In this document: positions 4,298-43,348 of the stretch, piece after piece
Position numbering within the stretch: the first letter of the stretch is position 1
How the letters are laid out: each line of letters opens with the position of its first letter
Sequence record: OR525704.1
Source: Escherichia phage vB-Eco-KMB35
DNA: 43,891 nt
Strand: one strand, 5' to 3'
Notes under the pieces: model-generated
Databases searched by the model: none
What the model was told of the DNA's origin: nothing
Seen by the model: the letters and a program-made list of their open reading frames with translations, nothing else
Position numbers and translations under genes: made by a program

Positions 4298-4326
4298 AAA
4301 AGGCCCCATTATGGGGCCTTAGTTTT
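4298..4326. terminator. Bidirectional hairpin ggcccc-attat-ggggcc between convergent genes
   Basis: GC stem flanked by A-run upstream and ttagtttt downstream. Confidence 0.6.
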
Positions 4327-4529
4327 CAACGGAATCTTGTGTTTAAATCCTGCTCATGGACAACCCTCAGAACAGTGTCATAATCCCCGTATCTTCCAGG
4401 TTCAAATATATCTAATGCCTTGTAAGCAGACATTGCGTCAGGGAAAACCTGCAGAACCTTTTTAACCCGGCACAAGTCACCGTCGAACTCTTCATCGAAC
4501 TCTTGAACTACTTCGCAAATTGCATACAT
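4326..4529 (-). CDS. Hypothetical small acidic protein (67 aa), reverse-oriented moron-like gene
   Basis: ATG at 4529 preceded by GGAGGTG RBS and the 32-bp promoter element; ends at bidirectional terminator. Confidence 0.6.
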   Translation of the reverse strand: MYAICEVVQEFDEEFDGDLCRVKKVLQVFPDAMSAYKALDIFEPGRYGDYDTVLRVVHEQDLNTRFR

Positions 4530-4553: not shown

Positions 4554-4585
4554 TGAATAGTACCCTATTATATTGGGGTGTGCAA
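4554..4585 (-). promoter_or_regulatory. Promoter element family A (TTGCAC-N17-TACTAT), copy 1
   Basis: Minus-strand sense ttgcacaccccaatataatagggtactattca; 32 nt identical to 13678..13709; directly upstream of gene 4326..4529. Confidence 0.6.
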
Positions 4586-4651
4586 ACTATTTATTTACGT
4601 ATTCCAGTTATTCCTCCGAATTGTAAATGTTGGAATAAACTATTCGAATAG

Positions 4652-4680
4652 TTGACTTTTCACTAAAAATATGATAAGCT
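4652..4680 (+). promoter_or_regulatory. Putative sigma70-like promoter TTGACT-N17-TAAGCT
   Basis: Hexamers at 4652-4657 and 4675-4680 with a 17-nt AT-rich spacer. Confidence 0.3.
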
Positions 4681-11875: not shown

Positions 11876-11904
11876 CTAAGGCCCCGAAAGGGGCCTTTTT
11901 TATT
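11876..11904. terminator. Bidirectional terminator ggcccc-gaaa-ggggcc followed by ttttttatt
   Basis: Perfect stem-loop between convergent major tail gene and minus-strand cassette. Confidence 0.7.
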
Positions 11905-12133
11905 ACTCATCAATGTTACTCCTGTACTCCCGTAACTTTTCCAGACTTTCAATTGCTTCCGCTAAGTCGGTTCCGGTGTCCTTGTGTCCACGTAAACCCA
12001 TGCACAATAGCTTCTTCAATGCGTGCTGTAACGCCGGGTCGCGGATGTCGAAAGCGCGGAGCACATCATAAACGTCTACTGTCATAGTGCTGCCGTGAGT
12101 GTTTGTCATTGTTCGGTTGTATTTTGAAGTCAT
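11903..12133 (-). CDS. Hypothetical protein (76 aa), last gene of reverse cassette
   Basis: ORF overlapping stop of upstream gene (12130), ends at terminator. Confidence 0.5.
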   Translation of the reverse strand: MTSKYNRTMTNTHGSTMTVDVYDVLRAFDIRDPALQHALKKLLCMGLRGHKDTGTDLAEAIESLEKLREYRSNIDE

Positions 12134-13260
12134 CCCAGCATCTCCGGTGAAATAGTTAAACGTGCGACCTCGCCATATTCGGCGCTATAAGTAATTACAT
12201 TTGCACTACGGCCTGACATCCACCCGCCGCGGGAGGCATAGGCGTCTTTAGCCGCTAAGGTGCGGTGTTGCTCAACAATCATGTTACGGCTTTCTACAAT
12301 CTTCTGGTGGTGCAGGTGGCCTACGTGGGCGTAGCTATAGACACTCTCACCGAACGCTTTGCGGAATTTGGCAATCATAACCGGTTCGATAGCATCGAAT
12401 CGCGCCTTATGCCCGTGGTGAAAGAACAACGTCGTTTTTCCGTGTTGCACCATCTTGTAAACATCCGGCGACGTATCGACAATCACTCGGCTGTCGTTCG
12501 AATATAAAACTGTGAACATTTCAGCCAGCCATACAGAGCCTACAGGGTCATGGTTCCCCTGTACGATAAGCAAGCGAACATTTTTATGTTTAACCAGTGC
12601 CATATCTACAACACGGCGTACCATACGAATCATGTAGCGGACGAGTTTCTGGTAGCGAGTGTCTGCGTCCAACACGTGACGCGACTCAGGTGTAACGGCA
12701 TCCAGACTATCGAAGTGCGCGAAATCACCCAGCAGGTTAATAACTCCTGTTCCTGCATCCGGTGCTTTCTGAAACGCCGCGTCGAACCAACGAGAGAACA
12801 GGTCTTCCGCAATCTTTATATCCCAGTCGTCGCCGCTCTCGTCGGCCCAGGCAAGCATACCGAGATGGAAATCAGATACCGTGTAAAGATTGAGTAGCTT
12901 GTCGTCGCGTTTGGCTCGAGTCGCTTTAGCCGGCGCAACTGGCGTAATCTCTGACTTCATGCCTTCAATCACGGCTTTCATCAACTCGACCTGACGTTCA
13001 GCGTCGGTGTCTGTCTTAACCCATTGCAACTTAGTATTGCCGAACTCGTCTACCAGAGACGACGTCCCTTTAATCTTGTAGCCGTCTGGGACAAGGTGGC
13101 TAACGTCACGCCCGTGGCCTACACCTTTCTTAGCCAGCTTCGCTTTACGGATACGAATAACTCGGTCTGAGATGCCGTATTTACGGGCGATGTCTACATT
13201 CTTCATCCCGGCGTTCAATTCTTCCTGTAACTGTTCGTCGGTTATTTTCTTCTGGGCCAT
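12130..13260 (-). CDS. HTH-domain / calcineurin-like metallophosphoesterase fusion protein
   Basis: 376 aa; N-terminal HTH (NVDIARKYGISDRVIRIRKAK); phosphoesterase motifs SDFHLG, LGDFAHFD, GNHD, HHGH, GHLHH in canonical order. Confidence 0.6.
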   Translation of the reverse strand: MAQKKITDEQLQEELNAGMKNVDIARKYGISDRVIRIRKAKLAKKGVGHGRDVSHLVPDGYKIKGTSSLVDEFGNTKLQWVKTDTDAERQVELMKAVIEGMKSEITPVAPAKATRAKRDDKLLNLYTVSDFHLGMLAWADESGDDWDIKIAEDLFSRWFDAAFQKAPDAGTGVINLLGDFAHFDSLDAVTPESRHVLDADTRYQKLVRYMIRMVRRVVDMALVKHKNVRLLIVQGNHDPVGSVWLAEMFTVLYSNDSRVIVDTSPDVYKMVQHGKTTLFFHHGHKARFDAIEPVMIAKFRKAFGESVYSYAHVGHLHHQKIVESRNMIVEQHRTLAAKDAYASRGGWMSGRSANVITYSAEYGEVARLTISPEMLG

Positions 13261-13325: not shown

Positions 13326-13652
13326 CTATTTACTTTCTGCGCCTATCGCCCACCCTGTCATTACCATTTGCAGACGGGTGGCTGTCAGTAGGCTATAGAA
13401 AGCATCTCCGTTTTTCTCTACCGAACGTATCACTGTGTAGGTTACGGCCTGCGGGGGTAGGCCCGATTTACCAACCTCCACGGCGGCCTCACACTCGCGA
13501 ACTGTAGAGTCCTTGAACGCCTTTACAATAGTAGGGTCGGCTTTATCAAGCACACCAGAAGTCATAAGAACAGATTCACTAAATACCTGTTCGCACGGGG
13601 CTCCAAAAGTAGCAAAAGACATAAAACCCAGAGCTAGTACTAATTTACGCAT
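13326..13652 (-). CDS. Secreted/periplasmic protein (108 aa) with N-terminal signal peptide
   Basis: MRKLVLALGFMSFATFGA signal-like N-terminus; promoter element directly upstream. Confidence 0.55.
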   Translation of the reverse strand: MRKLVLALGFMSFATFGAPCEQVFSESVLMTSGVLDKADPTIVKAFKDSTVRECEAAVEVGKSGLPPQAVTYTVIRSVEKNGDAFYSLLTATRLQMVMTGWAIGAESK

Positions 13653-13677: not shown

Positions 13678-13709
13678 TGAATAGTACCCTATTATATTGG
13701 GGTGTGCAA
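13678..13709 (-). promoter_or_regulatory. Promoter element family A, copy 2 (identical to 4554..4585)
   Basis: 32-nt exact repeat; TTGCAC-N17-TACTAT in minus-strand sense, upstream of 13652 start. Confidence 0.6.
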
Positions 13710-14233: not shown

Positions 14234-14595
14234 AAGCGCTGTATGAATTTGCGCAATGGTGCTTTGTCGACCGCCACAAACGTAAGCAATTCGACGACAT
14301 CGCGGCGGGCCACCAGGCGGCTTTGATTGCAATGGGCGTGATTAAAGAACCGCAGATGAAAGAAGCGACGGGGCCGGAATGCCCCGTTTCTCTTATCGAC
14401 GTGTTCGAGAAATACCGTGCCATTAAATTCCTACAGCGCGAAACAGATGATACTATCGTTATAATCCCGCGCGATGCGCTCAAATGGCAAGATTTGGTAG
14501 CGTTTCGTGATGTCGCCGGTTACGGCATAAGTTTGTTCGAAGCCGAGGTTATCATGGGCTTAGACGGAATATTTGAGGGCAGAGAAGATGGCTGA
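14215..14595 (+). CDS. Tail assembly chaperone frameshift extension (GT-like), reached by -1 frameshift near GGAAAAG 14224..14230
   Basis: Frame-1 ORF open from 14215 to 14595, overlaps chaperone 3' end and ends at tape-measure start; slippery A-rich run. Confidence 0.45.
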   Translation, partial: ETLGKVKALYEFAQWCFVDRHKRKQFDDIAAGHQAALIAMGVIKEPQMKEATGPECPVSLIDVFEKYRAIKFLQRETDDTIVIIPRDALKWQDLVAFRDVAGYGISLFEAEVIMGLDGIFEGREDG

Positions 14596-16900
14596 TACGG
14601 CTTCCCTAATTGCCAGAGTAAAAACAGAAGGCGCTGATGTAGCCGCTAAACAGCTTGACGCTATGGCGGCATCCGCAGACCGTGCGGACACATCCGTAAA
14701 CAAACTAACGCCGGATGTTAATAAAGTAAACTCCGCTACGTCTAAAGCGGCTTCTGACGGTTTCGCTAAATTCCGTAACGCCGCCGGGCAGGTAGGCTTC
14801 CAGGTGCAGGACATGGTCGTCCAGTTGCAGTCCGGTACGTCAGCATTTGTGGCAATAGGCCAGCAAGGTTCGCAACTTGCGGGTGCTTTCGGCCCTGGTG
14901 GTGCTGTGCTTGGGGCCGTAATCGCACTAGCGTCGGCTGTTGGTGGAGTACTGTATAAATCACTAACCGAAGCAGAAGGCAGTTCAAAAGACCTCGAAGC
15001 CGCGCAGAAACAGTTAAAAGATACTTTCCAGCAAACGGCATCTGGCTCTCTCGAGCTGACAGACGGCCTTATCCAGCTTACCCAAATCAGCAGAGAAGCA
15101 GCGGAGACTCAGCTTGCTCTGGCTAAGGCTAACGCGGACCTTATCGCGCAGCAAACCGCTAAAGCTGTTCGTGAAGATGCCGAATCATGGGAAACGTGGA
15201 AAGCCTCCACGGCATCGGCGATTAGCCAGTATGATGCATTAGTCTCTAAGGGCGCAGATGTAGGCGACACATTAGAAAAACTCGGCGGCACTTACGAGGG
15301 CAACATCGTAGGCGTCAACATGCTGGCGCAGAATATCGCGGAGCTTAGCAGTAAGTTCGGAGTTAACCGTGACCAGGCGCTGGAGATGATAGCGGCGCAG
15401 AGTGCGTTTAACAAAGAGCCAACCGCCGAGAATGCCCGTCGCATCGCCGATGTGTTTACCGACTGGCTCGGTAACACAAAACAGTTGAACCCGGAACTTA
15501 TCCGCCTGACGGACAACGCCAACAAGAACGCCACGGCACTGGAGAACGCGGAGAAGTCAGCAAACGCGGCGGCAGAGGCCCAAAAGAATCTTGGTCGCAA
15601 CGTCAACTCAACCACGCAGAGATTCCAGGAACAGAACGAAGCTATCGTCAAAAACCAGCAAATCGCCATCTTAAGCGACCGTGAGCGTATCCGGGCGCAA
15701 GCTGAACTTGATAAACAGGCGTTCGCTAAACGTGAAGCCGTCACCAAAGAACAGATAGCCGCGTATAATGCGGCCCGCGACGCGGAAGCGCAGCAAGACA
15801 TCGCCCGCATTGACAAGACCGAGAAAGAGAAGGCCGACCGCGAGGCTAAATCGAACGAGGAACGTCTGGCGGCACAAGCCAAACGCGAAGAAACAGCGGC
15901 ACAACGTCAGAAAAAAGCGGCGGAAGATTTCCTGGCTACTGTCGACCGCACAACCGGAGACGAAATTTCACGTATCACAGCGGCAGAAGAACAGAAACTG
16001 GCGAAACTTGAAGAGTTCAACCGCGCCGGAACGATAAGCCAGCAGCAGTACGAAAACGCCAAAACTCAAATTATGCTCACCGCCGAGCAGGCCAGACAGG
16101 AAGAACTGGATAAGAAAAGAAAAGAGCAGCAGGAAAAGCAGCAGAAAGGCGACGACTTCATGGCCCAGATTATGGGTCAGAACGCCGCTGAGCTTGAGCT
16201 TCTCGACATCCAGGAACAGCAGAAACTGTCGGTAGCAGATAAGTACCGCGAGCAGGGTTTGATTAGTGAGAAGCAGTATCAGGCTGCGCTTAATGCCATC
16301 AACGAGCAGTACGCCACGAAGCGTGCCGACGCAACGGCAACGGCCTTCGGTAACATGGCCTCAAACATCGGTTCGGCTTTGGGCGAGGCTTCTGGCGCGT
16401 ACAAGGCATTCGCTATCGTGCAGGCCACTATAGCCACGTACACCGCGGCTATTGAGGCGTATAAGTCAACAGCGGCTATCCCTGTAGTTGGCCCGTTCCT
16501 GGCTCCTGTAGCTGCCGCTGCTGCCGTTGGGGCGGGTATGGCGCAGATTTCCGCTATCAGGTCCGCACGTGAACAGGGCGGACAGTTATCCGCGGGGCAG
16601 GCTTCAACCATCGCCGAACGCGGTAAACCAGAAGTTATCATGCCCGCTGGTGCGTCACGTGTACGCACCGCACAGCAGATGAAAGAAATTATGGGGCAAA
16701 ACGGGTCTTCTTCCGGACCGTCTAATGTTACTATCGTAAACAACACGAGTTCTCAAATCGGCAACGTATCCACTGAGCAAGATGATGAAGGCCGTTTGCG
16801 TATCATCATCGAGGAGCAAGTGGCTGCCTCTTTGCAGAACAGTAACAGTAAGATTAGCAAGGCCCGCAAGGCCACAAGAAATGCGCCGGGGTTTAAATAA
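14588..16900 (+). CDS. Tail tape measure protein
   Basis: About 770 aa, long Ala/Gln/Glu/Lys-rich helical protein after chaperone pair. Confidence 0.8.
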   Translation: MADTASLIARVKTEGADVAAKQLDAMAASADRADTSVNKLTPDVNKVNSATSKAASDGFAKFRNAAGQVGFQVQDMVVQLQSGTSAFVAIGQQGSQLAGAFGPGGAVLGAVIALASAVGGVLYKSLTEAEGSSKDLEAAQKQLKDTFQQTASGSLELTDGLIQLTQISREAAETQLALAKANADLIAQQTAKAVREDAESWETWKASTASAISQYDALVSKGADVGDTLEKLGGTYEGNIVGVNMLAQNIAELSSKFGVNRDQALEMIAAQSAFNKEPTAENARRIADVFTDWLGNTKQLNPELIRLTDNANKNATALENAEKSANAAAEAQKNLGRNVNSTTQRFQEQNEAIVKNQQIAILSDRERIRAQAELDKQAFAKREAVTKEQIAAYNAARDAEAQQDIARIDKTEKEKADREAKSNEERLAAQAKREETAAQRQKKAAEDFLATVDRTTGDEISRITAAEEQKLAKLEEFNRAGTISQQQYENAKTQIMLTAEQARQEELDKKRKEQQEKQQKGDDFMAQIMGQNAAELELLDIQEQQKLSVADKYREQGLISEKQYQAALNAINEQYATKRADATATAFGNMASNIGSALGEASGAYKAFAIVQATIATYTAAIEAYKSTAAIPVVGPFLAPVAAAAAVGAGMAQISAIRSAREQGGQLSAGQASTIAERGKPEVIMPAGASRVRTAQQMKEIMGQNGSSSGPSNVTIVNNTSSQIGNVSTEQDDEGRLRIIIEEQVAASLQNSNSKISKARKATRNAPGFK

Positions 16901-25701: not shown

Positions 25702-26488
25702 TTACGGCCCCCATGAACGCCTTTATAAATTCAGCGGCTACTTGCGGGACGATAGCATTGCCGTAACCGCGCAATCGTCCCACTCTGGCGGGTACCCCAT
25801 TAGCCAGCGGGAATGTGCTGGGTTCAACTGGCCTGAATTTTCCATCCCGGCATCCGAGCCAGTCAGCATCTGACCAGAACCCGTTAGGCGGATTGGCTGT
25901 GTCAGAGATGCCTCTGTTTGCAGATTGTGGCCCCCGTTCCTGCCCTGATGGCCTGCTCCCGCCGAGTTGTTCGCACACGGTGTTGGCCAGTTGCTGCGCT
26001 CCGAAGAACAATCGATTCCTTTTGTGCGGTGCGCCGACGCTACAAGCTGGGAGTACGGCAAACCCGACGGCGTAGTCTTCTCTTTCCAGGTGAGTTTGTA
26101 AATCGCACATCCACGATTTTGCAATTGCTGCCGCAACCTGCTCCCCAAAGATGACTGGAGGGTGGCACTCGCTGATGAGGTCGAGGAGCACAGGTGCGAG
26201 GTGTCTCTGGTCGAACTGTCCGAGTTGCTTTCCTGCCGTGCTAAACGGTTGGCAAGGCGGACTTCCCGTCCATATAGGCGTATCTTCAGAAACTCCCGCA
26301 AGTCTGAGCGCGAGAGGCCAGCCGCCGATACCCGCGAAAAAATGACACTGGGTGAACCCGTCAAGGTCTTCTGGCTTAACTTCGGTAATGCTTCTTTCAT
26401 CTACAACTCCAAAAGGTATGTGACCCTGTTTTATCAACTCACGCAGCCACGCGGCTGCGCCTTTATCCCATTCATTGTAATAGTTCAT
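25694..26488 (-). CDS. DNA (cytosine-5) methyltransferase
   Basis: 264 aa; motif I FAGIGGW, motif [13 protein letters not shown], QxRxR-like KRNRLFF, C-terminal GNAIVP. Confidence 0.7.
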
Positions 26489-26676
26489 TTCGCCACCAGC
26501 ACCAGCTCTTTACGCCCGAACGCCGTAACGTTACCCGTTACATCTTCGATAACCAGTTTACCGTTCGACTCGACGAACACCGTATCAACGGCAACAGGTT
26601 GACGTGTCTTAACGTTGAAAATCATGTCACCCGGTACGATGTCACGTGCTGGTTTGCGGTCGTATTCGTGTTTCAT
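26485..26676 (-). CDS. Hypothetical protein (63 aa)
   Basis: RBS AAGGAA; overlaps methyltransferase start. Confidence 0.45.
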   Translation of the reverse strand: MKHEYDRKPARDIVPGDMIFNVKTRQPVAVDTVFVESNGKLVIEDVTGNVTAFGRKELVLVAK

Positions 26677-26706: not shown

Positions 26707-26994
26707 TTAACTATAATAGCCCGCTATTAGGTCGTCAACCTGTTTAAACGAACCAACGACAAAAACATTTGCACCACGTTTACGCATCCGCTCGTGCTCT
26801 CGTAACTGGTGCGGGTCCGGCTTCGTGTTTTCGTCTTTCTTAACCTCGACGAACCAGATGATGCCACCAGGGAGAATTACCAGCAGGTCGGGGGCGCCGG
26901 AGCGCCCCTCATAAGACAGCTTACGAACGAGGCCACCAATGGCCTCGAATCGCTCTTTTGCGTATTTCTGCACGCGCCCCTCAGGCGTACTCAT
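26707..26994 (-). CDS. VRR-NUC domain nuclease
   Basis: 95 aa; PDLLVI...VEVKK PD-(D/E)XK-type motif. Confidence 0.7.
   Translation of the reverse strand: MSTPEGRVQKYAKERFEAIGGLVRKLSYEGRSGAPDLLVILPGGIIWFVEVKKDENTKPDPHQLREHERMRKRGANVFVVGSFKQVDDLIAGYYS
26709..26738 (-). promoter_or_regulatory. Promoter element family B (minus-strand TTGACG-N17-TATAGT) overlapping the 3' end of the VRR-NUC gene
   Basis: 30-nt element aactataatagc-NNN-ctatt-NNNN-cgtcaa shared with 30898 and 33447. Confidence 0.45.
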
Positions 26995-27971: not shown

Positions 27972-30152
27972 CTACTTGGCGTATCTGTACATTTCGCTAC
28001 CTTCTGCTACAAGAGGGAACCCCTCCGCCCATTCTGGTAATTCGCACATCAATCGCTCAAGCTCTGCGACATTGTATTCCGGCGTATCTGGAGTTTCGCA
28101 GATAATCTCATCGTGGACATGAAGTACAATTGGATAACCGTTTGCTTCTACGTTCAGCAGCGCGTTGGCCAGCAAATCACGGCACAACGCCTGAGTGCAG
28201 TTTTCCACCAGTTTACCAGAGTAGGTGTACTGGAAGCCCCACTGCCGGGTTAACTGGTTTTCGCCCTGGTACTTGATGCGCACGTTAGTAGACACCTTTC
28301 CATCTTCGTCTGTCTCTTTCGACACACTTAATCCGACGCCCGGGTATGACATAACGCGACCCGACGGCAACGTCATGCGCAACCACCAGCCCGCGACTTT
28401 GTCGCCGTTGTTGTCTGTCTCTATGTTACGCGAAAACTTAACGCCTCGCGGTCCTGCGGTGAACTCTTTACCTGGATTGCGGATAGCGGCCATAGCTGCG
28501 TCTTCAATATCTCGCCAGAAAGCTACTGTTTCAGGGTGTGACTCTCGCCACATACGCTTGATAGCGTCACAGGTACGCCACACTTTCTTATCAAGAATAT
28601 ACGATGGTCGGTCATCCTTCTCCCCGGGTCGCGGCGGTCGCTTGGCTTCCTGAATACGTGCCCATTCATAGCCGCGTGCAGTAGCCGCCCAGATGTGGTC
28701 CGGGAAAGTACCGTCCATTGTTTTTGACATATCAACAAGGTCAAGTCCGAGGTTCTTAGCAAACTGAACGAAAGCGCCAACACCACCAGCGTAGCCGAGG
28801 CCAAGCTCGCAGGCTTTACCAATCTGGCGCAAGTCTTTGCGTTCCTTCTTAATGTAATCCGGCTCCATGCCGAACATCTTACCCGCGGTTACACAGTAAA
28901 TGTCCAGCCCGGCGCGGAACGTATCTAGCGCGGTTTCTTCGCCTGCCAGCCACGCAAGCCCCCGACCTTCAACGTTAGAGTAATCGGCGACGACAAACTT
29001 TTTTCCGGCTTCCGGGATAATGCAGCTACGCACCGTCGATGCCGTTAGCTTAGCGACATCGAAACGGCGATGCGCGCGGCCCTTAAGTAACGCTGAAATA
29101 CCTTTATCCAGTTCATCATCGTGATAGTACCCACGCGCGAGGTTCTGCGGCTGAAATCCTTTACCGGCAAATCGTAATGTACGCTTGGCTCCGCCGTACT
29201 GAATGCAACCACGACGGCGGTCGTCCGACGAGCGCCCTAACAGCAGCGGGTTATATTTCGTTGACGCTGTGGACGCGGCCCCGAGGCGCATTTCGATAAT
29301 CGCGCGGGCGTCGTCCGGTAAATCATCGTCCGCCAGCAGGTCGTTAAGCGTTGACTTCTGTGCATTGTGTATGCGGTGCGCGGGCGCAAGTTCACGCAGA
29401 ATCGGAAGGAAGTCTTTACCGGTAAGCGAGCCGCCGTATTTACGTTGAGCTTCTTCCTGTAACTGTGCCTTGTGCTTCTCTACGGCTTCAATCGCGGCTT
29501 CCGCCAGTGCGACGTCAACCTTAAATCCGCGGTCGTTGATTAACTGGTCAAGTTCCAGTACACGGTCTTCGAATTCGGAGTTACCCCACCGCGGCAGCTT
29601 ATGGAACACTTCACGCATCGCTGTGATGTCACTCACGGCATACTTGATAAACAGCGCCCACTCATCCGGGTGCGTTTCCGCGGTATAGCGGCGGATTTTG
29701 TAGTTCTTCGGCGTCGGTTTAGAGAAACGCTTAATCAGAGCCTTGCCGCGTTTATCTTTCGCGTTGTCTGCAGACACGCCCAGCACTTCGCACAGCGCAT
29801 CAAGAGAACCCGGCAGCGCGTGACGGAACGCCCAAATCATAGTATCAATGGTGTTGCTTACCGGAATATCAAAGCCCCAGCAGTGCTTCATGACGAGCCT
29901 ATCGAAAAGTCCACCGTTGTGCCACACCATCTTGATGCGGCTGTTGGGCTTAACAAGGCGGCGCAGTGCGCGGTGTAAATCCCCCGGCATGTCGCTGCCG
30001 TCGGTGCAATCCCATACCCGCACAGGTTCGTCGTCAAAAGCATATGTACAGATAAGCACTTCGGTTGACGGGTGTTCGGCGTAAGCGTAAGAACCGACTT
30101 TCTTCAAATCGGCTTCTGAGAATGTTTCAAAGTCTAAGAACAGGTAACTCAT
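27972..30152 (-). CDS. Family A DNA polymerase with N-terminal 3'-5' exonuclease domain
   Basis: 726 aa; exo motif FLDFETFS; polymerase motifs DYSNVEGR (A), RQIGKACELGLGYAGG (B), HVHDEI (C). Confidence 0.9.
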   Translation of the reverse strand: MSYLFLDFETFSEADLKKVGSYAYAEHPSTEVLICTYAFDDEPVRVWDCTDGSDMPGDLHRALRRLVKPNSRIKMVWHNGGLFDRLVMKHCWGFDIPVSNTIDTMIWAFRHALPGSLDALCEVLGVSADNAKDKRGKALIKRFSKPTPKNYKIRRYTAETHPDEWALFIKYAVSDITAMREVFHKLPRWGNSEFEDRVLELDQLINDRGFKVDVALAEAAIEAVEKHKAQLQEEAQRKYGGSLTGKDFLPILRELAPAHRIHNAQKSTLNDLLADDDLPDDARAIIEMRLGAASTASTKYNPLLLGRSSDDRRRGCIQYGGAKRTLRFAGKGFQPQNLARGYYHDDELDKGISALLKGRAHRRFDVAKLTASTVRSCIIPEAGKKFVVADYSNVEGRGLAWLAGEETALDTFRAGLDIYCVTAGKMFGMEPDYIKKERKDLRQIGKACELGLGYAGGVGAFVQFAKNLGLDLVDMSKTMDGTFPDHIWAATARGYEWARIQEAKRPPRPGEKDDRPSYILDKKVWRTCDAIKRMWRESHPETVAFWRDIEDAAMAAIRNPGKEFTAGPRGVKFSRNIETDNNGDKVAGWWLRMTLPSGRVMSYPGVGLSVSKETDEDGKVSTNVRIKYQGENQLTRQWGFQYTYSGKLVENCTQALCRDLLANALLNVEANGYPIVLHVHDEIICETPDTPEYNVAELERLMCELPEWAEGFPLVAEGSEMYRYAK

Positions 30153-30212: not shown

Positions 30213-30839
30213 TTAGCGGCGACGACGTTCACGGCGCGGTGCTTCATCTTCTTCGTCATCTTCCAGGTCATTGACGCTCGCGGCGACTTTAGAACCGCCG
30301 AACGCTTTGCCTTCGCCAACGTATTTAATCGCCAGCAGGTTAACGCCGAGGACTTTGTATTTCTGGCTGAACCAGATTTCAACGCTTACGTTAGCTAAGC
30401 ATCCGCTGTAAACCTGTTCACCTTCAATCTGTTCGCCGTCTACGTTGAAGTCCTGCTCTACCTGAGTCTCACCTTTTTTAGAGGTTACAATCAGCGGCTG
30501 TTTCTGTGCCTTCGCTTTGAAGTAGAAGCCTTCCGGGAAGTCTTCAAACGGATTGTCGCGCTCGGCAATGTCTTTAATCGCGCATTTATCCATGTGCTTA
30601 CCTTCACCGTAGTTGGACTTCATCCATTTCTCGGCAGCGGCTGCGCCTAACGCTTCTTCAACTACAGCGTAAACGGTGTCGTAGAGTGCATCGATTTGAG
30701 CATGGTCAGACGGCAGGATGATAGTCGCGCTGTACTGGCCTTTAGTGATTGAGCCATCATCGTTTTCACGGTCTTTTTCACGTTCAAATACGTTAACCCA
30801 AGCAGTGTTTACTTTACGCAGATTCAGTTTAATACCCAT
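30213..30839 (-). CDS. Single-strand DNA-binding-like protein (DUF2815-like, from memory)
   Basis: 208 aa; acidic C-terminal tail DLEDDEEDE; position next to polymerase and nuclease genes. Confidence 0.5.
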   Translation of the reverse strand: MGIKLNLRKVNTAWVNVFEREKDRENDDGSITKGQYSATIILPSDHAQIDALYDTVYAVVEEALGAAAAEKWMKSNYGEGKHMDKCAIKDIAERDNPFEDFPEGFYFKAKAQKQPLIVTSKKGETQVEQDFNVDGEQIEGEQVYSGCLANVSVEIWFSQKYKVLGVNLLAIKYVGEGKAFGGSKVAASVNDLEDDEEDEAPRRERRRR

Positions 30840-30897: not shown

Positions 30898-30927
30898 AAC
30901 TATAATAGCTAACTATTCAGGTGTCAA
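30898..30927 (-). promoter_or_regulatory. Promoter element family B (minus-strand TTGACA-N17-TATAGT)
   Basis: Near-consensus hexamers, 17-nt spacer, about 60 nt upstream of gene start 30839. Confidence 0.6.
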
Positions 30928-33191: not shown

Positions 33192-33419
33192 TTACTCACC
33201 GTCGCCTTCAGTAAGGCTATCGTCTATTAGTTCAAATTTACCGTTTGAGTGTTGAATAGCTTCTTGCCCGCAATGGTCACAGACAACAAGTTTATCGAAC
33301 CCATCAAACTCATCCCCTACTACGCAAGAAAGTACAAATTTATGTTTTGTGCACACTTCTTGCGGAGCGCCGAAAATTGCTCGAAAACCTTTAGCTATGG
33401 CCCCAGTGATTGTGTTCAT
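33192..33419 (-). CDS. Small zinc-ribbon protein (75 aa)
   Basis: CxxC-like Cys pairs (C..C...C..C); RBS GAGAGGGG; first gene downstream of promoter 33447..33476. Confidence 0.5.
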   Translation of the reverse strand: MNTITGAIAKGFRAIFGAPQEVCTKHKFVLSCVVGDEFDGFDKLVVCDHCGQEAIQHSNGKFELIDDSLTEGDGE

Positions 33420-33446
33420 ATCTGCCCCTCTCGTTTGGTATGGGCT

Positions 33447-33476
33447 AACTATAATAGCGAACTATTCACATGTCAA
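33447..33476 (-). promoter_or_regulatory. Promoter element family B (minus-strand TTGACA-N17-TATAGT), early leftward promoter
   Basis: Consensus hexamers with 17-nt spacer; palindromic core TAATAG-N4-CTATTC. Confidence 0.6.
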
Positions 33477-33540
33477 TGGGCTTTTCTAAAATAATTAATA
33501 TGGTACTATTCACATATCAACTGACTAAGGAGTAATTGAC

Positions 33541-33756
33541 ATGCAACCATCTGAACTAGGTATCCGTGTAGAACAACGCCGTAAAGAACTCGGCATCTCC
33601 CAGCGCCGTTTGGCGGCCCTGACCGGCGTTTCCCAGGGCGCGATTAACCAACTGGCACTTGGAGTAACTCAGGACGTCCGCCCGGCAACGCTGTTCAAAC
33701 TGGCGGAAGTTCTGGAAGTAGACGCCAAGTGGCTGGCGTTAGGTGAAGGGGCTTAA
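33541..33756 (+). CDS. Cro/XRE-family helix-turn-helix transcriptional regulator
   Basis: 71 aa; LGISQRRLAALTGVSQGAINQL HTH; divergent from replication operon; AAGGAG RBS. Confidence 0.7.
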   Translation: MQPSELGIRVEQRRKELGISQRRLAALTGVSQGAINQLALGVTQDVRPATLFKLAEVLEVDAKWLALGEGA

Positions 33757-33773
33757 AGCCCCTTTCTTTTTAC

Positions 33774-36008
33774 CTATTCCAAATCCTCCTCTGTCACCAC
33801 CAGCATCTCATTTGGTTCGTATAGTGTCTTCGGCCTTAATCTATCCCCTATTCTTTCGGGTATACGATATGTTCTCGGTACTACTTCGCCGTTAGCATCG
33901 CAACCAAGCATTAGTTCTCCATCTTTCAACATTTTATCAAGATGGGTGTTAGTCACAGAGAAGTCACCGGAACGAGCCACTATCTGCTGCTGAGTAAAAC
34001 CGCGACCTGTGTCATCTGACTGTTGCAGGTCTTCCAGTGCCGAAAGTATTGACTCCTTCCTTACTTCATCCCTGCCGCGTTTAACTTCTTCCTTTACTTT
34101 TTGCTTACCTTCTTTCGTCAACCCTTCTTCCCGCTCTTTCTCCTCGTCAGTTTTGAACGGCTCGAAACCCCACGGCATCAACACAAGCGCCTTGTGTGGT
34201 TCAGGCAGGTCCAGGTTTACGATTGTGCCGTATTCCTCTGTGCTACCCAGGAACTCAACCGCTCGGTATTCTTTAGGCGGCGGCGCTTCACGGAACTGTA
34301 CCGACTCCAGCACCATGCCAACCGTCTTCTGCTGAGGCCCGTGCTTGAATTTCGAGTGATATACGTTTATCTGACGGTCGGTTGCACGTTCGATTGTCAG
34401 TTCCACGTCAACACCCGCATACAGCGCCCCACTGCCGCGTGCTTTCTTTCCACCCTTCGGCGTATGGTGGACAACGCCTACTGCGGCTTTAGTTGCATCG
34501 CGTACTTCTTTCAGAATGGCGATAACTTTACCCATGCCGATTGCTGTTGATGAACTGTTCTCGTCGAACTTATCAATCGTCAGGGCCAGCGTCTGGTTAA
34601 GGGTGTCGAAGGCAACCATGCCAATAGGTTCATCCCCTGCGGTTTCGCGCATTAACTTAATCAGGCTTTTAAGTTTGCCGACTTCGCCCATATCGATGAC
34701 GTGTACATAATCTTTACCTTCCCCGCCATATTTAGCCGCTAGTGCATCAATACGGGTGCGTGTAGCTGCGCCACCCTCACCATCAATATAGAAATGGTGG
34801 CAACGCTGGGTATCCGCCCCCGCAAACCGGTACCCGGCGGCGCTCAGGTACATCATCCCCAGCGTATAGAATGATTTGTACGTGCCAGATTCCCCGACGA
34901 TATCCCATATACAATCTGATGGCATGTACCCTTCAACGACGAAATCAGCCTTTACCGGCTCCGGTAACTCGTCCCCCTCTGAGTCCTCCTCTGAGTCCTC
35001 GTCGTCTTCCAGGTCGTCGAGGCTGCAAGTTACTGGGTCCTCGTTCTCTGTGCGGTGTAGTTCTTCAATCTCTTCATCCGGTAAATCAGGCAGAGCCGCA
35101 CGAATGCTGTTAATACTGATAGGTTGCTTGTCTACGTTAAGCTCGTCTGGCAGGCCGCACATACGCAGGGCCAAATGCTGTCGGCGGTTAAGCTCGGTGC
35201 AAGCGCCGTTGTTTGTATGCTGGCACACAAAGCGCACTTCTTTACCATCAAGCATGATGCTTGTGGAGCCTTTGCCTGTATGCAGATGTTCGTTAGGACA
35301 TGGGACTTCGTACCCGCGCCCGGAAGATAAAGCGTCAAGGCCAAGCTCGGCTTCGCAGAAATGCGCTATATCAGCGTTAAGCCCATACTCATCGGCGGCA
35401 AGTGTCTTAACTTCACGTTTACTCAACCCCATCTCTTCGGCTTTCTTGATGTACCGCTCGGCACGGATAACACGCCCTTCTGTAACCGTTATCTTTGACT
35501 CTCTATGTGGCAGATAGATAAGGCGGTTGCCGTCTTCCGTGCAGTGGTCACGCAAGGCTTCATCTATTTCTAACTCTGCACAAATAGCCCGTTGGACCAT
35601 CCACGCATCGTTAGAGTTAAACGGCGTGCGAGCCGGTACGAGAACGCGGAAGGCGTAATCACCGTTTTTACACACATGCTGATGCGATGCCGTTGTATGC
35701 AGAATATTGAAGAACGGTGCGTTCTTGAATTTGCGGGTAAGGTCGCGGTACTGAGTACGGTTGAGATGGTCAAAATCGAACTTAACCACACTGTCTTCCA
35801 GAATAGCGTTCTTACGGCGACCGCCAACAGGCGCAATAGCTTTCTGTTTAATCTTGGCCGCGTCGTACTCTTCCTTAGTCCATGACGGGTCCACGGATAA
35901 ACGCTTCGATGTATCGCAGACATACTCCACAAACTGCTCGAGCGGCATCTCACGCGCTACAGGGTTTTTATCGAATGTGTTACGCAGCGTTGCAAAAACA
36001 ATATTCAT
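33774..36008 (-). CDS. Bifunctional DNA primase-helicase
   Basis: 744 aa; central zinc-binding CPNEHLH...C...C; C-terminal RecA/DnaB-like Walker A GESGTYKS. Confidence 0.7.
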   Translation of the reverse strand: MNIVFATLRNTFDKNPVAREMPLEQFVEYVCDTSKRLSVDPSWTKEEYDAAKIKQKAIAPVGGRRKNAILEDSVVKFDFDHLNRTQYRDLTRKFKNAPFFNILHTTASHQHVCKNGDYAFRVLVPARTPFNSNDAWMVQRAICAELEIDEALRDHCTEDGNRLIYLPHRESKITVTEGRVIRAERYIKKAEEMGLSKREVKTLAADEYGLNADIAHFCEAELGLDALSSGRGYEVPCPNEHLHTGKGSTSIMLDGKEVRFVCQHTNNGACTELNRRQHLALRMCGLPDELNVDKQPISINSIRAALPDLPDEEIEELHRTENEDPVTCSLDDLEDDEDSEEDSEGDELPEPVKADFVVEGYMPSDCIWDIVGESGTYKSFYTLGMMYLSAAGYRFAGADTQRCHHFYIDGEGGAATRTRIDALAAKYGGEGKDYVHVIDMGEVGKLKSLIKLMRETAGDEPIGMVAFDTLNQTLALTIDKFDENSSSTAIGMGKVIAILKEVRDATKAAVGVVHHTPKGGKKARGSGALYAGVDVELTIERATDRQINVYHSKFKHGPQQKTVGMVLESVQFREAPPPKEYRAVEFLGSTEEYGTIVNLDLPEPHKALVLMPWGFEPFKTDEEKEREEGLTKEGKQKVKEEVKRGRDEVRKESILSALEDLQQSDDTGRGFTQQQIVARSGDFSVTNTHLDKMLKDGELMLGCDANGEVVPRTYRIPERIGDRLRPKTLYEPNEMLVVTEEDLE

Positions 36009-36202: not shown

Positions 36203-36493
36203 TTACCGTTTAGCCAACCCTTCCAGCAAATTTTTATACTCTTCAAAATATTCCTCGACCAAATCATCGCCGAAATAGAAGTCGATATACTCGAGATTAT
36301 CTCTTACGTTAAGCGATGCCGACATGGTGCTTAGTTGGCGTAAGCTAATTAGCTTCATTTCTGTTTCTACGCAGAAAGGCCGGTAGGTATCAAGATGGCA
36401 AGAGATATTGAAGCATAAAGCGAACTCTCCGGCCACGGAGTGAACCATATACACTTCGTTTTCTGCTTTATTGTGGAAAATTACGCCTTTCAT
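36203..36493 (-). CDS. Hypothetical protein (96 aa)
   Basis: ORF in replication operon, overlaps upstream gene stop. Confidence 0.45.
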   Translation of the reverse strand: MKGVIFHNKAENEVYMVHSVAGEFALCFNISCHLDTYRPFCVETEMKLISLRQLSTMSASLNVRDNLEYIDFYFGDDLVEEYFEEYKNLLEGLAKR

Positions 36494-36672
36494 TTCACGT
36501 TCTCCTTAATCCATGCTTCGACTTTATTACGGTCAAATGTTCCCGGTAAACGGCGGCCCATAACCTTAATACAGCAGTCAGGGAATTTGCCGCTGCGCAA
36601 CCAGTTATTAATGGTCTGACGTGTCACCCCGATACGCTCGGCTACCTCATTCTGTGTCATGTAATGTTGCAT
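36490..36672 (-). CDS. AlpA/excisionase-like HTH DNA-binding protein
   Basis: 60 aa from ATG 36672 (RBS AGGGGA); MTQNEVAERIGVTRQTINNWLRSGKFP matches AlpA-type HTH pattern. Confidence 0.6.
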   Translation of the reverse strand: MQHYMTQNEVAERIGVTRQTINNWLRSGKFPDCCIKVMGRRLPGTFDRNKVEAWIKENVK

Positions 36673-36703
36673 TTTTATATCCCCTGTTTGTTTAGTGAAA
36701 CCG

Positions 36704-36732
36704 AGTATAGGATAGCGGGAATGTAAAAGCAA
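36704..36732 (-). promoter_or_regulatory. Minus-strand promoter TTGCTT-N17-TATACT for the leftward early operon
   Basis: Hexamers (read on minus strand) with 17-nt spacer about 30 nt upstream of AlpA-like gene. Confidence 0.45.
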
Positions 36733-36769
36733 CCAATCCCTGCAATATTTAATCTTTACAAAAAAGTTA

Positions 36770-36799
36770 TTGAAAGTTCTTGACACATGTTTGTATAAT
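36770..36799 (+). promoter_or_regulatory. Plus-strand promoter TTGAAA-N18-TATAAT
   Basis: Consensus -10, good -35, TG adjacent to -10; divergent from the minus promoter. Confidence 0.5.
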
Positions 36800-36805
36800 G
36801 GTTTT

Positions 36806-37026
36806 GGGACTTGTATATATTACGGAGTTGACGAACCCTCCCCGAGGGATTCGTCAACCCCTCCCAGACAGCTGAGATGCTTGCCTTGTGGTTTAAGGAT
36901 AAGTGTATCTAAATCTCATTTAAAGAAGTAACCCGCTGAAATATCTACTGTTTCTTAATGTGCCGTAGATTCGCAACCGTAAAAATGTAACGATTATTGG
37001 GCAGGCTTAGGGCCTGCCCTTTAGTT
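36806..37026 (+). ncRNA. Candidate small non-coding RNA (promoter to terminator, no ORF)
   Basis: About 220 nt between promoter 36770..36799 and terminator 36999..37026; 13-bp imperfect hairpin 36828..36857; longest ORFs 10-11 codons. Confidence 0.35.
36999..37026 (+). terminator. Intrinsic terminator gggcaggc-ttagg-gcctgccc then tttagtt
   Basis: Perfect 8-bp GC stem with T-rich tail. Confidence 0.6.
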
Positions 37027-37091
37027 ACCAAGTAATAAGAATAAAGGCACAACAGTTTCGAAAGAATCACAACGGCAACGTAACTATTCTC

Positions 37092-37123
37092 TTGCACACC
37101 CCAACATAATAGGATACTATTCA
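37092..37123 (+). promoter_or_regulatory. Promoter element family A (TTGCAC-N17-TACTAT), copy 3, rightward early promoter
   Basis: 30/32 identity to copies at 4554 and 13678 in opposite orientation; 30 nt upstream of ORF 37155. Confidence 0.6.
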
Positions 37124-37154
37124 CTTATCGAAACGAGACAGAGGAGTGAGGGTT

Positions 37155-38259: not shown

Positions 38260-38291
38260 TTGCACACTAATATAGAGTAGGCTACTATTCA
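38260..38291 (+). promoter_or_regulatory. Promoter element family A variant (TTGCAC-N17-TACTAT), copy 4
   Basis: Same hexamers and spacing; TACTATTCA core; 28 nt upstream of ORF 38320. Confidence 0.5.
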
Positions 38292-38319
38292 TTTACACAA
38301 ACGAGAGGAGAGACAGAAT

Positions 38320-39758: not shown

Positions 39759-40048
39759 GCCTTGCAACTGACATCCTGAAACGGAGCGGCCTTGCGCCGC
39801 TGTCGCCGAGAGCGAACACACGAATATACAAGCGCCGCCGTAATGCGCTGTACCCTGAGATTCAGGCCAGACGCAAAGCAGTCCGCGCCTGCGGATTCCA
39901 GAACGGAAAGGCCGTGAATCTCGGTGAGTTTAAAACAAAGGAACGTGCGGCTATCGCTAATCGGTTATTTAATTACTGGAAATCGCTGGGTTATGAAGAT
40001 ATTCCGACGAAACCACAGAGACGACAATACATCTGGCGTCATAAATAA
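39755..40048 (+). CDS. Small basic protein, possible AP2-like DNA-binding domain
   Basis: 97 aa; NGKAVNLGEFKTKERAAIANRLF resembles AP2/HNH-associated DNA-binding motif (weak). Confidence 0.35.
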   Translation: MSLATDILKRSGLAPLSPRANTRIYKRRRNALYPEIQARRKAVRACGFQNGKAVNLGEFKTKERAAIANRLFNYWKSLGYEDIPTKPQRRQYIWRHK

Positions 40049-41260: not shown

Positions 41261-41281
41261 TCTATTTTCTGCAATGACTAG

Positions 41282-41310
41282 TTGACTATTACCTACGACC
41301 CTATTATATT
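41282..41310 (+). promoter_or_regulatory. Promoter TTGACT-N17-TATATT
   Basis: Good -35 and -10 hexamers with 17-nt spacer directly after terminator. Confidence 0.5.
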
Positions 41311-41343
41311 TACTCCATCGACAACGAGAACGGAGTAGAGAAG

Positions 41344-42177: not shown

Positions 42178-42469
42178 AATCACAATTGCATCGCTCGAGC
42201 GCCGTATTATGGTGCTTGAGTCGGAGAAACAGACGTTAGGCGGGCAACTGTCAATTAACGGTGAGTTTCAACTGGAGGCGTATAAAGAACTTCTAGAGGC
42301 GTTTAAAGAGCTACAAGCCATCGCGTCTGACATAGAAAATATGATTGGATTGTTGCAATCCGGGGAGTGGGCCGAACACTGCACTAAATCGGCGTTAGGA
42401 AAACGGCTTGAGACGGAGATTACTGACATGCTGAGTTGTCTTGTTGAGGCGCCAGATGAGCACGCCTGA
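42170..42469 (+). CDS. Hypothetical coiled-coil protein (99 aa)
   Basis: ATG 42170; heptad-like helical sequence. Confidence 0.45.
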   Translation: MPKITIASLERRIMVLESEKQTLGGQLSINGEFQLEAYKELLEAFKELQAIASDIENMIGLLQSGEWAEHCTKSALGKRLETEITDMLSCLVEAPDEHA

Positions 42470-43231: not shown

Positions 43232-43255
43232 AGCCCTCTACGGAGGGCTTTTCTG
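43232..43255 (+). terminator. Hairpin agccctc-tacg-gagggct followed by tttct
   Basis: Perfect 7-bp stem, tetraloop, T-rich tail. Confidence 0.55.
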
Positions 43256-43348
43256 TACATCCCGCCCAATCCCCTTATATAATCCCTTTAGACGCGTAGG
43301 GCGCGTCTGGTGCGCTCTGATGGTCAGACGCATATGCAAGGGGATTCT

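Follow-up and report, generated by a model that had tools for sequence, protein, structure and literature searches.

A 14-bp dyad, AATAG-N4-CTATT, is carried by at least nine predicted sigma70-type promoters in the DNA of Escherichia phage vB-Eco-KMB35 (sequence record OR525704.1; 43,891 nt, hereafter called the window), where it occupies three registers relative to the promoter core. The arms AATAG and CTATT, rather than the 17-nt promoter spacer, appear to be under selection, and the dyad is very probably an operator bound by protein. Because the arms were kept across genera, any center was tolerated, and the dyad took both orientations and three registers relative to the promoter hexamers, it is best explained as a site for a dimeric DNA-binding protein. 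As the binder we lean, with some reserve, toward the product of a small regulator gene that lies beside two of the sites:

33541..33756, plus strand: gene for a 71-aa HTH_3 protein (XRE, Cro/cI-type), followed by a terminator at 33745-33765.

When the first 20 kb of the window were searched by megablast, the E. coli siphophages Bas70-76 (BASEL collection), XY2, 590B, and others matched at 94-96% identity over nearly the full length. We assign the phage on this sequence to the E. coli members of Kagunavirus, subfamily Guernseyvirinae; its gene order was that of the annotated relative Bas75.

An earlier note on this DNA had described a 32-bp promoter element (TTGCACACCCCAATATAATAGGGTACTATTCA) in four copies, two of them identical, each a short way ahead of a start codon that has a good ribosome-binding site. 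All four copies were recovered. The 32-mer occurred exactly at 4554-4585 and 13678-13709 (both on the minus strand) and with 2 mismatches (30/32) at 37092-37123 (plus strand), and no match to it was found in 100 dinucleotide-preserving shuffles. The pattern TTGCAC-N17-TACTATTCA was present only at the four reported sites (0.07 expected), including the looser variant TTGCAC-N17-TACTAT at 38260-38291 (plus strand), which was identical to the 32-mer at 25 of 32 positions. The start codons followed the 3′ end of the element at distances of 24, 25, 31, and 28 nt in copies 1 to 4, each with a GGAG-type ribosome-binding site. For copy 3, the likely start was ATG 37155, in agreement with the start of Bas75_0057, and not GTG 37146 as in the list of open reading frames (ORFs). 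The four copies, which constitute class 1 of the promoters described below, were as follows:

4554..4585, minus strand: class-1 promoter and putative operator, copy 1; -35 TTGCAC at 4585-4580, -10 TACTAT at 4562-4557, dyad AATAGTACCCTATT at 4556-4569; ahead of the 67-aa reverse-oriented ORF 4326-4529, which it is predicted to drive.
13678..13709, minus strand: class-1 promoter and putative operator, copy 2; dyad at 13680-13693; predicted to drive 13326-13652 (108 aa), 12130-13260 (phosphoesterase-like), and 11903-12133.
37092..37123, plus strand: class-1 promoter and putative operator, copy 3; dyad at 37108-37121; first promoter of the rightward small-gene block (ATG 37155).
38260..38291, plus strand: class-1 promoter and putative operator, copy 4; dyad at 38276-38289, AGTAG..CTATT, with 1 mismatch.

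Exact identity between copies 1 and 2 ended at the edges of the 32-mer. In the Kagunavirus Golestan, the dyad arms of these two copies agreed, and the 2 differences between them fell in the 5′ part of the spacer and in the dyad center, one in each. In Salmonella phage Jersey (Jerseyvirus), copy 2 read TTGCAT-17-TATTAT, and the dyad, itself the same, was displaced by 3 bp in its register. Copy 3 had 36 orthologues, and its Jersey orthologue is an annotated promoter (39893-39920). The arm AGTAG of copy 4 is a derived change in the window genome because relatives have AATAG at that site. The 5′ part of the spacer, ACCCCAATAT, was common to copies 1-3 only and varied between the Golestan copies; it was found neither in copy 4 nor in the Jersey orthologues and therefore looks like common descent of paralogous promoter cassettes, which would be its simplest explanation. 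A word in the 5′ untranslated region (UTR), AACGAGAGGAG or close variants of it, contains the Shine-Dalgarno sequence and recurred after several dyad-bearing promoters, at 37124-37154, 38292-38319, 33420-33447 (minus strand), and 41311-41340; a joint spread of promoter, UTR, and ribosome-binding site in cassettes is possible.

The dyad was strongly enriched in the window. Exact copies of AATAG-N4-CTATT numbered 6 (0.04 expected), which ranked it first in an unbiased census that counted, in each genome, every 5+5 palindrome with a gap of 0-12. With up to 1 mismatch, there were 13 sites in the window, compared with 1.1 expected. Searching with the 3′ half of the element (ATAATAGGGTACTATTCA, up to 3 mismatches) gave 7 sites, compared with 0.04 expected, and added 30902, 33451, and 33495. 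The dyad also ranked first in Bas75 (7 exact copies) and Golestan (8 exact copies); in Jersey, its 4 exact copies were tied for first place with TAATA-N6-TATTA (also 4), which is the same dyad read one base further out. No exact copy was present in three more distant phages, Hafnia phage TS33, Salmonella phage SE1, and the Dhillonvirus KarlBarth, and enumeration of dyads with mismatches in these three genomes revealed no enriched dyad. A motif derived by hand from SE1, GATTAGT-N3-GTAT, had 16 matches vs. 8 expected in SE1 and 14 vs. 9.5 in TS33. Its presence at several promoters is suggestive, and the signal seems too weak for covariation. An all-against-all 18-mer search of the PHIRE kind in SE1 and TS33 returned only noise of coding composition.

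Among the 13 window sites with up to 1 mismatch, 10 were at promoter-like sequences; the other three (2753, 20830, and 35835), located in or at the edge of coding sequence, are probably due to chance. The promoter sites fell into the following arrangements, whose positions assume a start site 7 nt after the -10:

Class 1, dyads at 4556, 13680, 37108, and 38276: TTGCAC-17-TACTAT, dyad at about -19 to -6, over the -10 and the 3′ half of the spacer.
Class 2, dyads at 26715, 30904, and 33453: TTGACR-17-TATAGT, dyad at about -25 to -12 in the spacer, in the orientation opposite to that of class 1.
Class 3, dyads at 41277 and perhaps 4647: TTGACT as the -35, dyad centered on the -35.
The regulator's own promoter, imperfect dyad at 33497: TTCACA-16-TAAAAT, dyad just downstream of the -10.

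Thus, the four copies in the earlier note were all real but formed an incomplete list of a family with at least nine promoters. The members outside class 1 were as follows:

26710..26738, minus strand: class-2 promoter TTGACG-17-TATAGT; dyad at 26715-26728, starting 4 nt after the -35; Jersey orthologue annotated as promoter 29238-29266.
30899..30927, minus strand: class-2 promoter TTGACA-17-TATAGT; dyad at 30904-30917; upstream of the gene for the single-stranded DNA-binding protein (30213-30839).
33448..33476, minus strand: class-2 promoter TTGACA-17-TATAGT; exact dyad O1 at 33453-33466; divergent from the regulator gene and predicted to drive 33192-33419 and the leftward genes downstream.
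33465..33512, plus strand: regulator-gene promoter TTCACA-16-TAAAAT (33465-33492); O2, an imperfect dyad (AATATGGTACTATT) close to the predicted start site, at 33497-33510.
41277..41310, plus strand: class-3 promoter TTGACT-17-TATATT (41282-41310); dyad ACTAGTTGACTATT at 41277-41290, 1 mismatch, centered on the -35; Jersey orthologue AATAGTTGACTAGT annotated as promoter 42343-42371.
4647..4680, plus strand: possible second class-3 site; AATAGTTGACTTTT, 1 mismatch, over a TTGACT -35; divergent from copy 1 and the weakest member.

The spacers of all dyad promoters were 16-17 bp. Class-1 and class-2 hexamers had the sigma70 form (spacer of 17 ± 1 bp, A2 and T6 in the -10), and class 2, which comprises three strong leftward promoters of the replication module, reached 10-11 of 12 consensus matches. 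At 30902 and 33451, the strong promoters were on the opposite strand (TTGACA-17-TATAGT, 11/12 matches), so that the shared sequence lay inverted relative to transcription, within the spacer. Matches of this quality to the sigma70 consensus were not enriched in general (20 found vs. 15.2 expected in shuffles). In the GenBank record of Jersey, four of the six annotated sigma70-like promoters overlap a dyad. Promoter function, as proposed in the earlier note, drew in silico support from the hexamers, the 17-bp spacing, the downstream genes with ribosome-binding sites, and the Jersey annotations; the identification of the repeated 32-mer as a host-type (sigma70) promoter is well supported at this level.

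A 20-mer core of these promoters has been listed by PHIRE as "phage promoters," with seven copies each in Golestan (Table S4, which includes TAATAGGGTACTATTCATTA) and fBC-Eco01 (Table S2, which includes TGAATAGTACCCTATTATAT) at syntenic positions (PMC9825357, PMC7203180). The occurrence in related phages on which the earlier note had made its proposal depend was found, at syntenic positions in Golestan and fBC-Eco01 and as orthologues in Jersey. The lists contain the same sequences as the window but give them as repeats only, and for fBC-Eco01 they are assigned to a phage RNA polymerase that does not exist. The idea that the sites are promoters of a phage-encoded polymerase, to which the selection of the 20-mer by PHIRE as a repeated phage-specific motif lends some appeal (PMC9825357, PMC7203180), has in our judgment virtually no chance of being correct. 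The sites have good sigma70 hexamers at 17 bp, and no RNA polymerase is annotated in Bas75, Jersey, or Golestan. No RNA polymerase domain was present in ten scanned ORFs of the window, which comprise all those longer than 500 aa except the 775-aa tape-measure ORF 14573-16900; these ten encode tail proteins, helicases, DNA polymerase, nucleases, primase-helicase, and methylase.

Comparison between genera separated the arms from the rest of the spacer. In six orthologous sites of the window and Jersey, the arms were identical at 57 of 60 positions (95%), the central 4 bp at 10 of 24 (42%), and the 12-bp flanks at 51-57%. SETP13, a second Jerseyvirus, had the dyad at the same promoters, yet with other central bases. 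In about 35 Kagunavirus contigs (IMG/VR), in which sites were chosen by their arms, the arms were fixed and the center varied within orthologous groups (tatc/taac in one; ttcg/ttca/ttag in another; cggg/cgaa/cgag/caca in a third). The earlier note had argued from the conserved 17-nt spacer that something more than RNA polymerase recognizes the element; this conclusion is supported, whereas the argument from the spacer is not, the dyad arms being conserved instead.

Conservation of the arms also bears on whether any additional factor is needed. The sites might be duplicated sigma70 cassettes whose palindrome results from near self-complementary, -10-like sequences, that is, from the symmetry of bidirectional promoters. 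Copies 1-3 do have the 5′ spacer and parts of the 5′ UTR in common, indicating common descent; one arm always overlaps or abuts a -10 hexamer; and the opposite strand of copy 2 reads TTACAT-16-TATATT, toward the tail genes. We nevertheless consider an origin without a binding factor quite unlikely. The distal arm AATAG of class 2 lies 4-9 nt after the -35, where the polymerase makes no base-specific contact, and was conserved between genera, unlike the center and flanks. On the opposite strand, class-2 sites offer no -35 that could be used. In SE1 and TS33, the gene for the single-stranded DNA-binding protein retains the orthologous promoter and leader, but the spacers are not palindromic and this promoter runs without the distal arm; therefore, the promoter does not need the dyad.

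The HTH_3 protein that we favor as the binder of these operators matched Pfam HTH_3 (E = 3.9e-13) and, when compared with the PDB by phmmer, 434 Cro (71 aa, E = 8.5e-6) and 434 cI (E = 1.1e-5), with P22 C2 also among the best matches. Its AlphaFold 2 model (predicted local distance difference test, pLDDT, 81) matched HipB, C.BclI, 434 cI, 434 Cro, SinR, and P22 c2; to our knowledge, HipB, the C proteins, 434 cI/Cro, SinR, and P22 c2 are all dimers that bind palindromic operators. The closest known parallel is 434 Cro/cI at OR and OL (also P22 C2/Cro and lambda Cro), with which the window protein shares its small size, its single HTH_3 domain of 71 aa, and matches in sequence and fold. The operators of 434 are 14-bp dyads in which the outer bases are conserved and the center is free, and the window dyads resemble them in these respects and in overlapping promoter cores. 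Another likeness is that two operators, one of them weaker, are located between divergent promoters beside the regulator gene: O1 and O2, with centers 44 bp apart, bracket back-to-back promoters next to the HTH_3 gene. The imperfect arm of O2, ATATT, was identical in 34 of the 34 sites of its orthologous cluster; a conserved imperfect site at its own promoter is the usual design for late autorepression. Unlike 434, the window phage is virulent, and its putative operators are scattered over at least nine promoters in three registers instead of being clustered as in OR/OL; the half-site AATAG is unrelated to ACAA, and the binder is predicted from sequence. C proteins of restriction-modification systems are also small HTH_3 dimers with paired palindromic boxes (C-boxes) over their own promoter that act as a timing switch, and C.BclI, C.AhdI, and C.Esp1396I were among the HTH_3 fold matches. 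However, C proteins act at their own operon only, where they both activate and repress, whereas the window sites are genome-wide and no restriction-modification system is involved.

Several observations weigh against the HTH_3 protein or against a uniform repressor role. The unselected conservation contrast within Kagunavirus was small, with everything about 90% identical; that profile is uninformative, and the comparison across genera was therefore needed. The HTH_3 proteins of Kagunavirus and Jerseyvirus were 48% identical and differ in their recognition helices (SQGAINQ vs. SQSLITH), and the dyad core is the same in both. SE1 and TS33 encode HTH_3 homologues (35-41% identical) yet have no enriched dyad. 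The dyad set co-occurs phyletically with a second regulatory gene, of the HTH_17 family, although this is effectively one evolutionary event. Sites centered on the -35 could also act differently, for example by activation. The flanking base was the only consistent operator difference between the genera (G/T in Kagunavirus, T/T in Jersey); it tracked the HTH_3 type rather than the HTH_17 allele and also tracked phylogeny.

The HTH_17 gene encodes the principal competitor for the dyad:

36493..36672, minus strand: gene for a 60-aa HTH_17 protein (Xis/BldC/MerR-N-like winged helix), first gene of the leftward early operon.

Two monomers of this protein might bind the inverted repeat of the operator and thereby repress or modulate the same set of promoters, that of the HTH_3 gene among them. 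The window, Bas75, Golestan, and Jersey have the HTH_17 gene, and SE1, TS33, and KarlBarth do not, an exact match to the distribution of the enriched dyad, and its identity of 80-86% between Kagunavirus and Jerseyvirus (48% for HTH_3) fits the shared dyad core. The AlphaFold model (pLDDT 79) resembled RacA, BldC, Xis, and MerR N-domains, and RacA binds a 14-bp inverted repeat. We nevertheless regard HTH_17 as an unlikely binder. It exists in at least four alleles (100, about 89, about 86, and about 70% identity), the last with VS[TP]MTLNRW as the recognition helix instead of VTRQTINNW, whereas the dyads are unchanged and HTH_3 is ≥92% identical. Each allele was linked to its own, different upstream promoter region (36493-36800), suggesting local targets, and no dyad was found at the HTH_17 gene's own promoter. 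The protein lacks a dimerization domain, and direct repeats are the usual targets of its closest structural relatives, BldC, Xis, and Cox. The phyletic match amounts to a single evolutionary event, and an IMG/VR scan with HTH_17 returned Kagunavirus-like contigs only, with no independent lineage. HTH_17 and its site instead appear to form a self-contained mosaic module exchanged among Kagunavirus and Jerseyvirus genomes. A phyletic-profile search for proteins specific to Kagunavirus and Jerseyvirus returned mostly shadow ORFs; its genuine hits were HTH_17, the phosphoesterase, the 108-aa ORF, and a 63-aa ORF (26485-26676).

The MerR-N-like fold of HTH_17 and the position of the dyad between -35 and -10 recall MerR-type activators. 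MerR promoters, however, have over-long spacers of 19-20 bp that the activator untwists, whereas the spacers in the window are an optimal 17 bp, the hexamers are near consensus, and HTH_17 has no coiled-coil dimerization helix. The spacers of 16-17 bp instead of 19-20 bp speak against a MerR-type activator site.

A host transcription factor common to E. coli and Salmonella could also bind the dyad and tie early transcription to host physiology, and phages of both hosts do carry the dyad. In its 5-N4-5 geometry, and in the class-3 variant ACTAGTTGACTATT, the dyad seems similar to the core of the trp operator. The variant centered on the -35, ACTAGTTGACTATTAC (41277-41292, plus strand), shares 14 of 16 positions with the E. 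coli trp operator core ACTAGTTAACTAGTAC, a close resemblance that may be a coincidence; its Jersey orthologue (42338-42353) has CTAG on the other arm. TrpR, however, needs CTAG, which the consensus AATAG destroys. Salmonella phage SE1 and Hafnia phage TS33 are without the dyad, the phage has HTH genes of its own adjoining the sites, and we know of no host factor with a matching consensus. A host factor is thus very unlikely.

Terminator-like hairpins are numerous in the phage, and HTH_17 shares its name with E. coli AlpA-type proteins; the dyad might accordingly be proposed as the loading site of a Q- or AlpA-like antiterminator that makes transcripts resistant to termination. Q- and AlpA-binding elements also lie between -35 and -10 (PMC9371919). 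The AlpA of P. aeruginosa has eight helices, an N-terminal ring reaching into the RNA exit channel, and DNA contacts at R128-H142, and so well over 140 residues (PMC9371919). The phage HTH proteins, in contrast, are single domains of 60 and 71 aa, and this candidate was dropped. The annotations of Bas75, Jersey, and Golestan include no Q-like gene, and the dyad registers differ by as much as 20 bp, whereas loading onto a paused polymerase would call for a fixed geometry. We hold antitermination at the dyad to be highly improbable.

Returning to the HTH_3 protein, dyad binding, if it occurs, is likely to repress. The full explanation, in which an autoregulated, Cro-like HTH_3 repressor would act through operators on early and middle promoters, we hold to be as probable as its negation. 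The phage is strictly virulent, and its annotated relatives Bas75, Jersey, and Golestan have no cI partner, integrase, or immunity region. Because no cI-length repressor or integrase is annotated in these three, we consider that the HTH_3 system would work like Cro but does not constitute an immunity region of the lambdoid kind. In Kagunavirus K1B4, an RNA-seq time course placed an HTH-domain gene, which may or may not be the HTH_3 gene, among only four early-peaking genes; that study does not map 5′ ends (PMC12645636).

From the anatomy of the sites, the following order of early shut-off can be proposed. Host sigma70 polymerase would start at the dyad-bearing promoters early in infection. As the Cro-like protein accumulates, its dimer would occupy the 14-bp operators over the -10, the spacer, or the -35 and exclude the polymerase, so that the promoters of the replication module, the rightward small genes, and the reverse-oriented accessory genes would be turned down. 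Its own promoter would be repressed last, via the weaker site O2, and the promoter that precedes the terminase and structural genes, which has no dyad, would be left to run. A promoter-like site without a dyad, TGTACA-18-TATAAT, was present at 43254 (plus strand), ahead of the small terminase gene. More tentatively, a lone Cro-type protein and a single operator on essentially every non-late promoter may run the early-to-late program of a virulent subfamily, a possibility to which we give limited credence. The register (-10, spacer, -35, or +1), together with graded operator quality, would then set the order and extent of shut-off, and at sites centered on the -35 the protein might even activate. 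The regulon would have grown from a local autoregulatory site, still present in SE1 and TS33, to become genome-wide in the ancestor of Kagunavirus and Jerseyvirus.

Neither the GenBank record of Jersey nor the PHIRE papers note the dyad, its several registers, or a binding protein; the PHIRE papers also do not mention the sigma70 hexamers, the orientation of class 2, or a candidate binder. A literature search found no functional study of transcription control in Guernseyvirinae. New here is a probable operator-type switch that is ordinary in kind and had not been described in this phage group; the repressor-operator design is familiar and should be a modest surprise for the specialist. Phages of the Guernseyvirinae (Kagunavirus and Jerseyvirus) rank with the coliphages and Salmonella phages that are isolated most frequently for use in therapy and biocontrol, and their transcription program is essentially unstudied. 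Reading the sites as sigma70 promoters with a common operator gives a testable map of the early and middle regulon, including the reverse-oriented accessory genes in the structural module, corrects the annotation of the "phage promoter" motif, and offers compact phage-controlled promoter and operator parts for engineering.

The genes of the window were arranged as follows:

Packaging, head, and tail genes: rightward, carrying two short insertions of reverse-oriented gene groups.
Replication module, about 24-36.8 kb: leftward, broken by the single rightward gene of the 71-aa "transcriptional regulator."
Small-gene block, lysis genes, and small terminase gene: rightward.

The orientation of the primase-helicase gene differs between lineages (region 33541-36008 compared). 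It points the same way as the HTH_3 gene in SE1 and TS33 and, in Dhillonvirus, the same way as a small ORF that occupies the HTH_3 position. Its segment is inverted in Kagunavirus and Jerseyvirus, where it is read from the direction of HTH_17; HTH_17 and the genome-wide dyad set appear together with this inversion. The class-2 promoter at 33476 is directly followed in the window by a leftward ORF at 33192-33419 (minus strand), whereas Bas75 annotates a rightward ORF at 33234-33455 (plus strand). Both the window and Golestan have there the leftward 75-aa ORF (PHROG 32657, E = 6e-52) with a good ribosome-binding site, and the Bas75 call is probably on the wrong strand. The 63-aa ORF 26485-26676 (minus strand), directly downstream of the class-2 promoter at 26738, was 95% identical between the window and Jersey, a conservation far above that of its neighbors, and was not found in SE1, TS33, or Dhillonvirus; judged by eye, its sequence does not look like HTH.

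The leader at 43254-43310 (agacgcgtagggcgcgtct...gatggtca, an inverted repeat) was kept even in SE1 (about 39630, minus strand) and TS33 (about 16986, plus strand). The region 43254-43310 is probably a late promoter with its leader, or a packaging-related element. A Rfam scan of the window returned zero families. A second dyad-free promoter, strong and sigma70-like (TTGAAA-18-TATAAT), was located at 36770-36799 (plus strand) between divergent early promoters and was followed by about 225 nt without a convincing ORF, up to an intrinsic terminator at 36999-37019. RNA of the 36770-37030 region, which has no Rfam match, folded much better than shuffles (z = -4.07), with a long hairpin at about 36826-36858, and 36770-37030 (plus strand) is a candidate phage small RNA.

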